Below, piece by piece: positions 11,554 through 17,285 of a DNA stretch of 20,716 nt; position 1 is the stretch's first letter, and every line of letters begins with the position of its first letter. The notes under the pieces were generated by a model, which saw nothing but the letters and a program-made list of their open reading frames with translations, searched no databases and was not told the DNA's origin. The stretch is from a virus. Lineage: Duplodnaviria > Heunggongvirae > Uroviricota > Caudoviricetes. Made by a program: the position numbers and the translations under genes. The stretch covers positions 1-20,716 of IMG/VR virus record IMGVR_UViG_2541047849_000003. The stretch is one strand, 5' to 3'.

Positions 11554-13427
11554 TGGCTAAAGCATGGAAGGATGTTATCGCCTCTCCACAGTATCAGGCG
11601 TTAACTGAAGAACAGAAAGCACAGGCTCAAGCGCAATATTTTGATGAGGTTGTTGCCCCTAAGGCTGGTGACAAATGGGCTGAAGCAAGAGATCAGTTTT
11701 ATGCAGCATACCCTCCGCCTCAGCAGCAGAAAGAAGAACCATCATTGATGCAACAAGCTGGCGATTGGCTCACAGGTGGTCAAAGTGCCGGGCAAATTGC
11801 AGAACAGGCTGGTCGTGGTCTGGTAAACATACCATTTGACGTATTGCAGGGTGGCGCAAGTCTGATTAATGCTATCAGCCAGGGGCTTGGTGGCCCAAAG
11901 GTTTTGGATGATGTTTATCGCCCTGTCGATCGACCGACAGACCCCTACGCACAAGCCGGTGAAACAATTGGTGGGTATTTAGTTCCAGGAGTTGGAACGG
12001 CAGGAAGCATGGCTATTGGATCACTGGCAGAGGCCGCAAATCAGAAAGGCGATTTCGCACAAAATGCAGCTAAAAATGCCGGAGTTAACCTTGCCGCTCA
12101 AGGTGTTCTTTCCGCAGCAGCAAAGGGAATAGGGCGTGGAATAACGGCTATAAAAGGTGATATTGCGCCAGAAGTGGCGAAGAAAATTGCCACATCAGAA
12201 TCGATGGGCGTGACACCAATGACATCTGATGTTATCCCGCCGAAAAATGCTTTCACTCGCGGCCTTACTCAGGATGCCGAGGGGGCTTTGCTCGGGACGG
12301 GCTCAAAGCGAGCAGAGCAATATGCAACGCGTAGTAAGCTGGTAAGCAATTATTTTGACCGTTTTGGTGAGTACAACCCTGATGATGTGGTGAAATCTCT
12401 GACCACCACGTTAAGGGGACGGAAGGATACTGCTGGCGCTGTTATCAATGACGTCACCAATAAAATGGGTAATGCCGCAGTTGATACCACAAATACCATG
12501 AATGCTCTGAATACAGCGATCGCAAGACAGGAACGGCTTGGGACTTCAGCCAATCAAAGCCTGCTTACATCCTTGCGTAACCTACGTGAAGAATTAGCAA
12601 ACCCTGCAACTGATTTGGATGTTACGTTTGATCTCTTGCGTCAGCACAGAACAGCCTTTAGATCTAATGTTCAGGGAGATGCTATGGTCTTCCCCAACCA
12701 GGCAAAAGCAGCTACCAATATGGTAGAGAATGCAATGTCAAAAGACCTTCGTAACGCAGTTGCTAAAAACCTCGGTGCATCAGACGCAGCAAAATACCTT
12801 AAAGCAAATTCCGATTATGCAAACGTTTATAATAAGGTGCTTAATAAAAACATTGCTAACAAACTCAACAAGGCAAGCAGTGAAGCCAGTCCTGAACTTA
12901 TAAATACCGTTGTATTAAGCAGAAAACCATCTGACGTGAAACGAATCTGGAGCGCACTGGATGATAAAGGGAAAGATGCTATGCGTGCAGCTTACGTCAG
13001 CAAAATAGCGGAAAAGGCCGGTGACTCTCCAGCCAAGTTCATCACTGAAGTTAATAAGCTGAAATCTCAGTCAGGCGGTGAAATTTACAACACTATTTTT
13101 TCTGGAAAGCACATGAAAGAACTTGATGCTCTTAATGAAGTTCTACAGCAAACAGCAAGGTCAGACACCGCAAATGTAGTAACTCAGACGGGGCAATCGC
13201 AAGCCAACAGGATAAGGACGATTGGCGCAACTGCGACTCTTGGCGTATCAATGGGGCTTGAGGCTGGTTTCGGTGCAATGATGCGCTTGTATGAGTCCAA
13301 AGCAGCAAGGAATGCGCTCTTACGTCTGGCAAACACCAAAGCAGGAACGCCAGCCTATGAAAGAGCATTAAGTAACGCTGCAAATGCCATCAGACCGCTG
13401 CTTGCCACTGAGGCAACACAGCAGTGA
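11553..13427 (+). CDS. Ejection protein, P22 gp16-like
   Basis: 624 aa against 609 in P22 gp16. Start overlaps the gp20-like stop (TAATG). Gene order conserved. Confidence 0.7.
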
Positions 13428-13444
13428 CTAAATGCCATGGATGG

Positions 13445-13633
13445 CTATTTCCCTAGCACATGAAACAATGTTTGCTTTAATTCCACCCATACAATTATGA
13501 CCACTATAGACAGACAAAAGAAACTGAATGCATTGGCATCACGATCGAAACCTTCTCCGGCACTAAATCCGTAAAAGGTCATAAAAAATATAAAAATTGC
13601 GCACTTTGCAACGTTTACAAATTTTTTCTTCAC
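13445..13633 (-). CDS. Hypothetical small membrane protein (Lys-rich N-terminus, two hydrophobic segments)
   Basis: GTG start at 13631-13633 preceded by AAGGAGG with a 5-nt spacer. The supplied track extends the same frame to an ATG at 13708 without a ribosome-binding site. Hydrophobic stretches CAIFIFFMTFYGF and FSFFCLSIVVIIVWV. Confidence 0.4.
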   Translation of the reverse strand: MKKKFVNVAKCAIFIFFMTFYGFSAGEGFDRDANAFSFFCLSIVVIIVWVELKQTLFHVLGK

Positions 13634-13696
13634 ACCAACCTCCTTAGTTTTGAGCAGGATACCAGATGATAATGTGTAGTTGGAGTAGCGCGGTTG

Positions 13697-13787
13697 TAAT
13701 GCAAGCATTTTGTTTTGGTTTTATGCTTGCTTGTATGTGTGTACAGTGTATATAATGCAAGCATGTATCACAACAAGGTGCTTGCAT
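13697..13787 (+). promoter_or_regulatory. Promoter (-35 TTGCTT 13727-13732, -10 TATAAT 13751-13756) embedded in four copies of an operator-like motif ATGCAAGCA(T) in alternating orientation
   Basis: Forward copies at 13699-13708 and 13755-13764; reverse-complement copies at 13723-13730 and 13779-13787. A perfect TATAAT lies 18 bp after a TTG-containing -35. AAGGTG ribosome-binding site 8 nt before the ATG at 13789. Confidence 0.4.
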
Positions 13788-13788
13788 T

Positions 13789-14781
13789 ATGACTGAAAAG
13801 AAAAGTGGCGAAGGGAAAGCTAAGGGCGGTATCGCTCGCGCAAAGTCGCTGACTAAAGAGCAGCGTTCTGAAATAGCAAAGAAAGCAGCGGCTGCAAGAT
13901 GGAAGGATAAACCATTAATTGCTACGCATAAGGGATCGTTCCAGCATGAATTCGGGATTGATGTTGAGTGCTATGTGTTAAATGATGATAACAAAACTGC
14001 CGTTATTAGCCAGAGAGGCATGGGAGAAGCGATTGGTCTTGGCGAAGGTGGCAGCAGGTTGCCAAAGTTTATTCAGGGGAAAACTATTTCTCAGTATATC
14101 GGGCATGAATTAAGGGCAAAACTTGAAAATCCTCTTATTTTTCAATACAAACAGGCGGGCACGAACACTCCAGCTAATCCTGTAATACATGGCTACGATG
14201 TAACAATATTAATTGATTTATGTCGAGCAATCTCTAATGCTAAAGCCGAAGGTAAGTTGCTTTCCAGTCAGGAAGGGATTGCTAAGCAAGCCAGAATCAT
14301 TATTGATGCATCAGCCAAGGCGGGCATTCAGGGGCTTGTTTATGCTTTGGCAGGGTATGACAGAACAAAAGAAGAGGTAATTCAAGCATATAAGCGATAT
14401 GTTGCTGAAGAGGCTCGTGAGTATGAAAGAGAGTTCACCCCTGAACTTTATGAGCATTGGTATCGTCTGTATGGTATAGACAAACCAGTTAGAGGGCGAC
14501 CATGGGCGTTTAAATATCTTACGATAGATCACATTTATTACCCATTAGCCAGAAGTGAAGGAAAGGTATTTAATTTAGCAAAAACGTCAAAAGAAGAAAA
14601 AGGCAGCAAAAACGATAAAATACACCAGTTTTTATCAGAGGTTGGAGTTAAGGCTCTTAGAACCCAAATAGGTAAGGTTACTGGTATTGCAATGGTTTCT
14701 GATACTCGAGAAGAGTATGAGAAATACATAGATGAAAAGGTTATTGGACAAAGAACCATAGACTTAAAAGATAAAGAATAA
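13789..14781 (+). CDS. Hypothetical accessory protein, probably P63C-domain family (phage regulatory or antirepressor-associated domain of unknown function)
   Basis: 330 aa. Basic N-terminal tail GGIARAKSLTKEQRSEIAKKAAAARW, then ...ECYVLNDDNKTAVISQRGMGEAIGLGEGGSRLPKF..., which matches my memory of the conserved P63C core. AT-rich codon usage unlike the flanking structural genes. Own promoter upstream and terminator downstream. Confidence 0.6.
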   Translation: MTEKKSGEGKAKGGIARAKSLTKEQRSEIAKKAAAARWKDKPLIATHKGSFQHEFGIDVECYVLNDDNKTAVISQRGMGEAIGLGEGGSRLPKFIQGKTISQYIGHELRAKLENPLIFQYKQAGTNTPANPVIHGYDVTILIDLCRAISNAKAEGKLLSSQEGIAKQARIIIDASAKAGIQGLVYALAGYDRTKEEVIQAYKRYVAEEAREYEREFTPELYEHWYRLYGIDKPVRGRPWAFKYLTIDHIYYPLARSEGKVFNLAKTSKEEKGSKNDKIHQFLSEVGVKALRTQIGKVTGIAMVSDTREEYEKYIDEKVIGQRTIDLKDKE

Positions 14782-14787
14782 GAAAAT

Positions 14788-14809
14788 CCCACCGTCAGGT
14801 GGGTTTTTT
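14788..14809. terminator. Rho-independent terminator between convergent genes, probably bidirectional
   Basis: CCCACC-GTCA-GGTGGG hairpin followed by TTTTTT and preceded by an A-rich run. Lies between the plus-strand gene ending at 14781 and the minus-strand ORF ending at 14835. Confidence 0.65.
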
Positions 14810-15183
14810 ATAAGGAGTAATCATGATTTACCCATCAAACAACCCACCAGTTTGCCTGATTGGATGCCAGCCTTGCAGTTTTTATGGAATTAATTATGCC
14901 ATGCTCAAGAGCCTTGTTAGCATCCAAAATGGTCGAGTCTGCTATCAGGGATGCCCACCTAATATGGGTTCCGATGTCGATATTGAACGTCTCAACGAAG
15001 CGATCAAGATCGTTATCGAGGCATTTCCCGTACTCTCTCAATCTGGCATGGTCGGCGGCTGGGGAGGCAAAGCACCATAATAGAGGATGTAACAGGAATC
15101 TTGATAATGGGTTTGCGAAACGTTCTGAGCCAGCCAGGAAAACGATATTAGCTATGGATTCAACATTGCTTATGTTGTGAGTT

Positions 15184-15187
15184 CTAA
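15184..15187. repeat. IS5 target-site duplication CTAA, left copy (right copy at 16383-16386)
   Basis: Identical 4-bp CTAA immediately flanks both inverted-repeat ends of the IS element. IS5 is known to duplicate a YTAR tetramer. Confidence 0.8.
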
Positions 15188-16382
<1,195 letters not shown>

Positions 16383-16569
16383 CTAACGGTAACAGGGAGT
16401 GACTTAAGAAAGTTATACGCAGTAAAGCCAGCGGCAGTTTCCCCTCCCTGACTTGATATATGGATATTTAATTCAGTTGCGCCTTGAGATAATGCGGTGA
16501 GACAGTGGTTCTGAAGTTGCCCAACAGTGGCAGTGTTAACGGGGCATAAGAAATGAATTGTGTGCAGCA

Positions 16570-16818
16570 TTATTTTTCATCCTTACCATACATGGTCTTT
16601 AGCGTCTCAAGCAGCGCCTCTTTGAATTTGTCAGCTTCTTGCTGAGCAAATGACTCAACTGACTTTGGCGACCTATCTTCATCAATCGCGGCTTGCAAAA
16701 TCATGACGATCTCGGAGTTAACAGAGCGACCATTTTTTGATGCTCTGACAGCAAGAGCCTCGCGTAAAGATTCAGGGATTCTTACCGTAGTTGGAGAAAT
16801 TGACACACCCTTTGCCAT
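16570..16818 (-). CDS. mnt: Ribbon-helix-helix repressor, P22 Mnt-like
   Basis: 82 aa against 83 in P22 Mnt. Contains the RHH signature NGRSVNSEI. Transcribed divergently from the arc-like gene. AAAGGTG ribosome-binding site. Confidence 0.8.
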   Translation of the reverse strand: MAKGVSISPTTVRIPESLREALAVRASKNGRSVNSEIVMILQAAIDEDRSPKSVESFAQQEADKFKEALLETLKTMYGKDEK

Positions 16819-16932
16819 ATCACACCTTTGGTATTCAATTTGATATCAAAGTGTATGCAAAAAAATTTTGACTAGATATACTCACTTTGCTATCTTTTGT
16901 ATTCGAAAAGAGTTGTTTGTGTGGAGGGTAAC
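16819..16932. promoter_or_regulatory. Divergent mnt / arc-ant promoter-operator region with a 12-bp perfect palindrome TTTGATATCAAA (16839-16850) and a candidate rightward promoter (TTGACT 16867-16872, TATCTT 16890-16895)
   Basis: Intergenic region between divergently transcribed RHH repressor genes. The perfect palindrome is a plausible RHH-dimer operator. The -35/-10 pair has 17-bp spacing. Confidence 0.45.
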
Positions 16933-17085
16933 ATGGAGAAAGAAATAAGTAAGATTTTGGTAAGGATGCCGCAGTCGTTAAAGGATGCTATAGGTAGCAG
17001 GGCAAAGGAAGAGTGCAGGTCGTTTAACTCAGAGGTTATCAAGCGCCTGATAGACAGCTTGAAGAGAGAGGGGGTAATGGTATGA
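16933..17085 (+). CDS. arc: Ribbon-helix-helix repressor, P22 Arc-like
   Basis: 50 aa from the ATG at 16933 (GGAGG upstream); the supplied track extends the frame to 16897. The RMPQSLKDAIGSRAKEECRSFNSEVIKRL region matches the Arc/Mnt RHH fold pattern (P22 Arc: NLRWPREVLDLVRKVAEENGRSVNSEIYQRV). Confidence 0.75.
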   Translation: MEKEISKILVRMPQSLKDAIGSRAKEECRSFNSEVIKRLIDSLKREGVMV

Positions 17086-17285
17086 GTAAAGAATGTTGTT
17101 TCTGCGGCATTAGCGAATCAGACGCTGATCAAACATACATTTACTCTAAAGAAACAGGTCGGATGCTGTGTAGTGACTGCGTGTTGGACATCATAAGATA
17201 CAAGCATCTTGGATGTTCTGCCAGCATTAGCAATATAGGTGAAGTATATGAAGGGAAAGATATAACTGATAGAGCAGAAAGTTGA
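17082..17285 (+). CDS. Hypothetical Cys4 zinc-ribbon-like small protein inserted between arc and ant
   Basis: 67 aa with CCFCG and CSDC motifs. ATG overlaps the arc-like stop (ATGA). P22 has no ORF at this position, as far as I recall. Confidence 0.45.

Follow-up and report, generated by a model that had tools for sequence, protein, structure and literature searches.

A four-site repeat array conserved across bacterial phyla at the promoter of a prophage P63C-domain gene, most likely an operator for negative autoregulation

In a P22-like (Lederbergvirus) prophage of Escherichia coli, a 10-bp sequence is repeated four times across the predicted promoter and translation start of a gene for a 330-amino-acid (aa) P63C-domain protein, raising the questions of what these repeats do and which protein, if any, reads them. 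The stretch of DNA analyzed, hereafter the window, is the whole of positions 1 to 20,716 (20,716 nucleotides [nt]) of the IMG/VR record IMGVR_UViG_2541047849_000003 and represents the late/immI part of the prophage. An initial annotation of this DNA had proposed that the repeats alternate in orientation, bracket the promoter and start codon, and bind a dimeric regulator, possibly the product of the gene itself or the Mnt or Arc protein, so that the gene would be tightly switched. Comparison across viral and bacterial genomes suggests that the array is an operator of four sites that spans bacterial phyla, belongs to one prophage gene family alone, and most likely serves negative autoregulation. 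The elements of the array and of the gene that it precedes are the following, with positions relative to the predicted transcription start.

13699-13708, plus strand: site 1, ATGCAAGCAT, an exact copy at about −64 to −55; the first of the four sites in 99 loci (defined below)
13723-13732, minus strand: site 2, ATGCTTGCtT as read on the plus strand, one mismatch to the reverse complement, at about −40 to −31; holds the −35 hexamer
13727-13732, plus strand: predicted −35 hexamer TTGCTT, inside site 2, with an 18-bp spacer to the −10 hexamer
13751-13756, plus strand: predicted −10 hexamer TATAAT, whose final two bases are the first two of site 3
13755-13764, plus strand: site 3, ATGCAAGCAT, an exact copy at about −8 to +2; spans the predicted transcription start near 13763
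13775-13778, plus strand: ribosome-binding site AAGG, whose last G is the first base of site 4
13778-13787, minus strand: site 4, gTGCTTGCAT as read on the plus strand, one mismatch, at about +16 to +25; occupies the stretch between the ribosome-binding site and the ATG
13789-14781, plus strand: gene for the P63C-domain protein (330 aa; PF10546, phrog_2384), the proposed autoregulator
14788-14803, no strand assigned: terminator-like hairpin, bidirectional, which closes the cassette

Reading of the sequence bears out all four copies at the positions first assigned to them, with some details revised. The sites do read forward, reverse, forward, and reverse, but the 10-mer ATGCAAGCAT is a near-palindrome in which only the central AA/TT is asymmetric, so the orientation of a site is a matter of its two central bases alone. 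Site 3 lies at the −10 element as described, but it overlaps TATAAT by 2 bp rather than abutting it. The overlap with the ATG at 13789 holds for the 11-mer TAATGCAAGCA, which touches the A of the start codon, whereas the 10-mer of site 4 stops one base short. The 11-mer occurs three times in the window (at 13697, at 13753, and reversed at 13779-13789) and nowhere else there; lone copies of the 10-mer with one mismatch are present at 14380 and 17198.

These repeats are clustered far beyond chance. Motif counts over the entire window, a measure of enrichment that the initial annotation had suggested, reveal none: the 8-mer occurs 3 times versus 1.9 expected (29 of 100 shuffles reach 3), and matches with up to two mismatches number 37 versus 37.7 expected. 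Such counts are uninformative alone, and the signal resides in clustering together with conservation. Four matches with at most one mismatch fall within 90 bp, as opposed to a maximum of 2 per 100 bp in 300 dinucleotide-preserving shuffles of the window, and the only other matches of this quality are the two isolated copies just mentioned. The second of these (17198-17207, ATACAAGCAT) lies inside an arc-like open reading frame (ORF) upstream of ant and is within chance expectation.

The array recurs upstream of related genes in viruses and bacteria. A protein-based scan of viral contigs yielded 67 loci with homologues of the P63C-domain protein (32 to 100% identity), and directly upstream of nearly all of them is the arrangement GCAAGC..GCTTGC..GCAAGC..GCTTGC, even in high-GC loci with flanks that do not align to the window. 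A search with a DNA-only pattern, requiring sites 2, 3, and 4 and applied to one genome per species, matched at least 120 genomic places, where about 3 chance matches were roughly estimated for uniform base composition. Places among the matches listed belong to Alpha-, Beta-, Gamma-, and Deltaproteobacteria, Acidobacteriota, Actinomycetes, Dehalococcoidia (Chloroflexota), and others. Among the 120 listed places, 91 have a homologue detectable by tblastn (24 to 67% identity, starting at about query residue 15 and roughly 40 to 130 nt from the array), and a further 9 have matches to the family profile, several of them cut by locus ends, such that 100 of the 120 lie beside a family member. The remaining 20 or so consist of poorer 10-mers or tandem repeats and are chance-like.

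The anatomy of the array was derived from 99 non-redundant upstream regions, mutually less than 80% identical, in which the array persists upstream of homologues to about 25% protein identity and across bacterial phyla. Each site has a core of 8 to 10 bp, (A)TGCAAGCA(T), with an information content of about 2 bits per position, compared to about 0 bits in the flanks. The orientation is + − + − in 76 of the 99 loci and + − + + in 10. Sites 2 and 3 are separated by 31 to 32 bp, start to start, in 78 loci, a constancy that can be ascribed to the promoter elements located there. Positions 5 to 10 of site 2 read TTGCAT in 54 loci and TTGCAA in 24, the spacer between the −35 and −10 elements is 17 to 18 bp in 78, and the −10 element occurs at a fixed position as TAnnAT (T in 73 loci at position 1, A in 79 at position 2, A in 69 at position 5, and T in 96 at position 6), with its closing AT doubling as the first two bases of site 3. 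A GG of the ribosome-binding site is enriched just 5′ of site 4, and the ATG start codon reuses the final AT of site 4 in 54 loci.

This placement, kept in 99 diverged loci, supports the view that the repeats form a regulatory array on the promoter and translation start, and it upholds the earlier assignment of sites to the −35 region, the −10 element, and the start codon. Within the E. coli lineage, the sites are also less variable than the surrounding sequence, with 2 of 40 columns variable in sites and 25 of 83 elsewhere (P = 0.001, Fisher exact test). The promoter itself became evident from the comparative alignment; a consensus promoter scan passed over it because the −35 hexamer of the window fits at only 3 of 6 positions. 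The transcription start is predicted to lie near 13763 from the position of the −10 hexamer. In the window, a mirror-image promoter running leftward from site 3 was dismissed, as its −10 element would be CATACA.

The outer spacings vary among loci but are matched within them. Start to start, sites 1 and 2 are 20 to 30 bp apart (mode, 23) and sites 3 and 4 are 18 to 27 bp apart (mode, 24); the two distances covary (r = 0.71 in 87 canonical loci) and are equal within 1 bp in 74 of the 99 loci. The array thus has a two-fold symmetry, and the matched spacings fit two equivalent pairs of operators that would be read by one kind of protein assembly. In one subfamily, a longer linker after the basic N-terminal motif described below accompanies shorter site spacings (21 to 22 bp, versus about 24 bp). 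The relation of linker length to site spacing (Spearman correlation, −0.48) was discarded as evidence, as it probably reflects the existence of two subfamilies.

Conservation on this scale also bears on which protein reads the sites. When ORFs of the 99 loci were clustered, the P63C family was the sole real gene family common within about 3 kb of the array. Clusters ranking next in size consist of antisense or alternative-frame translations of this same DNA, only 8 of the loci contain the first unrelated family (CI-like), and no ribbon-helix-helix gene is common to the neighborhoods within about 3 kb. In the complete 45.9-kb phage ON470589, which encodes a homologue, the only motif cluster lies upstream of that homologue. 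The linkage of sites and gene is exclusive and runs in both directions, with homologues leading to the array (nearly all of the 67 viral loci) and the array leading to a family member (100 of the 120 listed places). Given that only the P63C family is shared and that ON470589 has a single cluster, the simplest reading is that the gene encodes its own regulator, and of the candidates first proposed it is the P63C-like protein that the comparative evidence favors.

The portion of the protein that would contact DNA is probably the N-terminal 95 or so residues. In three loci (L084, L117, and L135), the proteins have only about 95 N-terminal residues in common with the family and have a different C-terminal body, and the four sites are kept. 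Conversely, in a clade of three viral loci that retain the rest of the protein (58 to 76% identity) and have a different N-terminus, the sites are absent. The candidate binding part would include a basic N-terminal motif and possibly the small alpha/beta domain that follows it.

13825-13902, plus strand: basic N-terminal motif GGIARAKSLTKEQRSEIAKKAAAARW, codons 13 to 38; candidate DNA-recognition element

Across the family this motif, GG.ARA..L..E.R..IA.KAA.ARW, is the best-conserved segment, with a mean column identity of 0.69 compared to 0.37 to 0.61 elsewhere, and it is predicted to form two helices (predicted local distance difference test [pLDDT] score, 70 to 80). AlphaFold models (pLDDT, 72 to 74) place two helices at the N-terminus, followed by an alpha/beta domain (residues ~43 to 137) and a helical C-terminal half. 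An unrelated ORF at positions 1516 to 1800 of L084 has the same basic motif (GGKARAKKLSKKKRSQIATKAAKARW) at its C-terminus. The most distant viral homologue (L070, IMGVR_UViG_3300035364_000010; 32% identity) has no ATGCAAGCAT sites; at positions 2300 to 2520 it has repeats of another motif (ACGTACAT / CGTACAT) around a similar promoter layout, and its N-terminal motif, which ends in AAKK and not ARW, may be a specificity variant.

Taken together, these features lead us to regard the four sites, with moderate confidence, as operators of a sequence-specific DNA-binding protein, most likely the product of the downstream gene acting in negative autoregulation. A sigma-70-type promoter, with its −35 hexamer TTGCTT in site 2, an 18-bp spacer, and a TATAAT overlapping site 3, would drive the gene. 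As the protein accumulates, it would occupy sites 2 and 3, covering the −35 element, the −10 element, and the transcription start, and would also fill the flanking sites 1 and 4. Joint occupancy could then exclude or trap RNA polymerase, resulting in low, self-limited expression. We infer the use of this promoter, the position of the transcription start, the identity of the binding protein, and repression upon binding from sequence comparisons. The proposal of a tightly switched gene appears overstated, since the positions of the sites suggest self-limiting repression and a steady, low level of expression.

Several observations weigh against autoregulation by the P63C-domain protein. Neither profile searches nor a sequence search of the Protein Data Bank (PDB) detected a recognized DNA-binding domain in it, and the literature and databases name no function for the P63C family. 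The joint loss of the N-terminal motif and the sites represents one event, which a single recombination that swapped the whole 5′ block would also explain. The correlation between the outer spacings is partly phylogenetic (r = 0.48, 0.51, and −0.26 within identity classes), and spacings that range from 18 to 30 bp keep no helical phase, which is unusual for rigid cooperative binding.

Annotation of the protein offers few further clues. Its match to PF10546 covers residues 202 to 289 and scores 35.9 bits against a gathering cutoff of 26.1, and it belongs to phrog_2384, a cluster of unknown function. There are 2,766 homologues at an E value of ≤1e-5, and NCBI calls the close relatives P63C domain-containing proteins. 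The PF10546 family was named after the C-terminus of p63 of Myxococcus phage Mx8; the product encoded in the window passes the Pfam threshold, but the sites track the N-terminal 95 or so residues and not the P63C domain. Profile searches of Pfam and NCBIfam with the N-terminal 50 residues, with residues 39 to 196, and with the whole protein returned nothing besides P63C, and PADLOC gave no defense-system match for the protein. The PDB sequence search aligned the N-terminal motif with the basic region of a basic helix-loop-helix (bHLH) protein at a non-significant E value of 1.3.

The array and the start of the gene also move together among E. coli prophages.

13673-13904, plus strand: conserved 5′ block comprising the operator array and the first 38 codons; recombines as a unit onto different gene bodies

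This block is 94 to 99% identical in 66 of 5,426 complete E. coli genomes. The rest of the gene differs much more, with other alleles at 54% amino acid identity, and the gene body in the window (13905-14781) is matched in only 3 genomes. The disparity points to a recombination site near codon 39 and to a diversifying gene body. The array and first 38 codons behave as a portable regulatory module on variable C-terminal bodies. The left boundary of the block is seen against phages that carry other cassettes. More tentatively, and with less than even expectation of being right, we suggest that the basic N-terminal motif of about 26 residues, either by itself or in combination with the neighboring alpha/beta domain, constitutes a sequence-specific DNA-binding module, unrecognized until now, that reads the palindrome ATGCAAGCAT, that with the four-site operator it forms a portable, self-limiting expression module, and that phages of many phyla fuse this module to fast-diversifying effector bodies at hotspots of superinfection exclusion or defense.

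The same mobility could be taken to mean that the gene product binds the sites for some other DNA transaction, such as positive autoregulation, the recruitment of a sigma-like factor, or the recombination or mobility of the cassette. The movement of the 5′ block among gene bodies and phage backgrounds fits such a role, as does the distance of about 27 bp between the array and the cassette's left boundary. We nonetheless consider this unlikely: the sites lie over the −35 element, the −10/+1 region, and the early transcribed region, where repressors rather than activators typically bind; in the 99 loci, the core promoter already resembles an ordinary sigma-70 promoter; and the other end of the cassette has no matching set of sites. 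Structural matches to sigma-like proteins rank among generic helical bundles (e.g., terpene synthases) at the same Z score.

A second alternative, which strikes us as quite improbable, is that the sites act as nucleic acid hairpins. In read-through transcripts (e.g., the phage late transcript), site 3 would pair with site 4 (or 1 with 4 and 2 with 3, as nested pairs) and so conceal the ribosome-binding site and ATG, and only transcripts from the gene's own promoter, starting inside site 3, would be translated. There is a precedent in the fold-back inhibition of the IS10 transposase, where an inverted repeat sequesters the start codon in read-through transcripts and the native promoter starts inside the repeat. 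The array is alike in having an inverted repeat able to hide the start codon and its own promoter starting inside that repeat. For RNA of positions 13690 to 13800, the folding energy is −52.4 kcal/mol (z = −8.6); the ATG is covered by a perfect inverted repeat of 12 bp (13752-13763 with 13779-13790); and no terminator-like site was found on the plus strand between the upstream gene and the array. The variable distances between sites 1 and 2 and between sites 3 and 4 look, moreover, like tolerated loop lengths.

The strong fold, however, follows from the inverted cores themselves. The stems show no covariation, for which their invariant cores leave no room, and all four arms have the same primary sequence across phyla, which a pure structure does not require. 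Complementarity ends at the cores, with flanks matching at 2.0 to 2.7 of 8 positions, as in permuted controls, and on this basis we rejected hairpins or cruciforms whose pairing extends past the cores. In 10 of the 99 loci, sites 3 and 4 share an orientation, so that a stem between them would contain A·A mismatches. Two of the sites, 1 and 2, are on the upstream side of the conserved promoter, and read-through from upstream cannot be constant in such varied contexts. Rfam offers no family for the structure and yields only miRNA-precursor noise (14 to 28 bits, versus gathering scores of 56 to 249). Unlike IS10, the array keeps a single invariant sequence in four copies, two of which precede the promoter, and lacks covariation; the invariant copies and lack of covariation point to recognition of sequence rather than structure. 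Pairing may still have a secondary role in blocking the translation of read-through transcripts.

Binding of the sites by a regulator from another locus (Mnt or Arc of the neighboring immI region, another phage repressor, or a host factor) might be inferred from the Arc/Mnt-like ribbon-helix-helix gene at 16570-16818, followed by an arc-like ORF and ant, and from the short 8- to 10-bp palindromic boxes typical of ribbon-helix-helix proteins, but it is very unlikely, given that the array occurs in at least 100 genomes of many phyla without a second shared family nearby; that a host factor would have to be shared by organisms as distant as E. coli, Acidobacteriota, and Chloroflexota and yet recognize an invariant 10-mer present only at this gene, which is improbable; that ON470589, with its single cluster, gives no sign of the motif in a wider phage regulon; that P22-like relatives with mnt, arc, and ant but other cassettes lack the motif; and that about 2.8 kb separates the array from the Mnt-like gene, with the copy at 17198 as the one isolated, single-mismatch match in the region from 16570 to 17285. 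The suggestion of control by Mnt or Arc is hence not sustained, as the array travels with its gene into many phyla and no ribbon-helix-helix gene is shared within about 3 kb.

Negative autoregulation through such an array has familiar counterparts in the repressor-operator arrays of phages, including those of lambda CI and Cro at OR and of P22 Arc and Mnt at Pant/Pmnt. The resemblance lies in several short symmetric sites over the −35 element, the −10 element, and the start of the regulator's own gene, and in an arrangement that is conserved together with that gene. The present array differs in having four 10-bp sites, with abutting half-sites of 4 to 5 bp, in two-fold symmetry around the promoter; in outer spacings that are variable (18 to 30 bp) yet mutually matched; in a 330-aa protein without a recognized helix-turn-helix or ribbon-helix-helix domain; and in the apparent control of a single accessory gene rather than a lysis-lysogeny switch. 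Moreover, classical operators diverge quickly, whereas the sequence of these sites is invariant across phyla.

The locus also resembles the morons of prophages, with its own putative promoter, its terminator at 14788-14803, and its presence or replacement among similar P22-like phages at the spot of a sieA-type exclusion gene. Morons are usually described as constitutive or host regulated, whereas this gene has a private, deeply conserved set of operators and a regulatory 5′ block that is swapped independently of the gene body. Searches of Rfam and of the literature found no family or paper describing the motif. The kind of system is thus familiar, both as autoregulated operator and as moron cassette, but the element, its invariance, and its likely protein partner appear to be undescribed.

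In P22-like E. coli prophages, the cassette is self-contained (putative promoter, gene, and terminator) and is situated between the DNA ejection genes and the immI region. Its surroundings in the window are as follows.

ends at 13427: gp16-type DNA transfer gene
13445-13633, minus strand: small membrane ORF, its start most likely the GTG at 13633 behind GGAGG at 13644-13640
14823-15080: 85-aa ORF, phrog_7758, of unknown function, between the cassette terminator and the IS5 copy
15185-16385: IS5-type insertion sequence between the cassette and the Mnt-like gene, with terminal inverted repeats at 15185-15203 and 16367-16385
15334-16314, minus strand: IS5 transposase ORF
16355-16570: 71-aa ORF, the remnant of a gene for a ClpP-like "head maturation protease"
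16570-16818: Mnt/Arc-like ribbon-helix-helix gene, followed by the arc-like ORF, ant, and the tailspike gene

The small membrane ORF, in its 62-aa version, matches phrog_21338 from end to end. Site 1 does overlap an alternative ATG of this divergent ORF (13708-13706, minus strand), as had been noted, but the overlap is probably irrelevant because the real start is most likely the GTG at 13633. A block of about 42 bp at 13631-13672 (caccaacctccttagttttgagcaggataccagatgata) includes both the start of the leftward small membrane gene and its ribosome-binding site; the block is kept in hundreds of E. coli prophages and phages with differing leftward genes and rightward cassettes and appears to be a separate junction or regulatory segment. 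In three unrelated genomes (L084, L110, and L124), transposase-like ORFs starting MNRLPIEKRAQIIG adjoin the far side of the array. Phages phiv205-1 and E212 carry alternative cassettes at the same spot as the P63C cassette, and in phiv205-1 the gene for the ClpP-like head maturation protease is intact (537 bp) beside the Mnt-like gene.

The family marked by this array, with members numbering in the thousands among prophages of many phyla, has no known function. Its cis element remains constant letter for letter while the protein drifts to 25% identity, and this provides an experimental handle in the form of a 10-bp site, a promoter, and a candidate binding module of about 95 residues. The array also serves as a simple DNA signature for finding such cassettes in genomes. 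In P22-like E. coli prophages, the regulatory block is kept (94 to 99% identity) while the body is swapped (54% amino acid identity) at an exclusion gene locus, a pattern that hints at diversifying pressure on a function sensitive to dose. Should the N-terminal motif prove to read the site, the known repertoire of DNA-binding modules would gain a new, small member.

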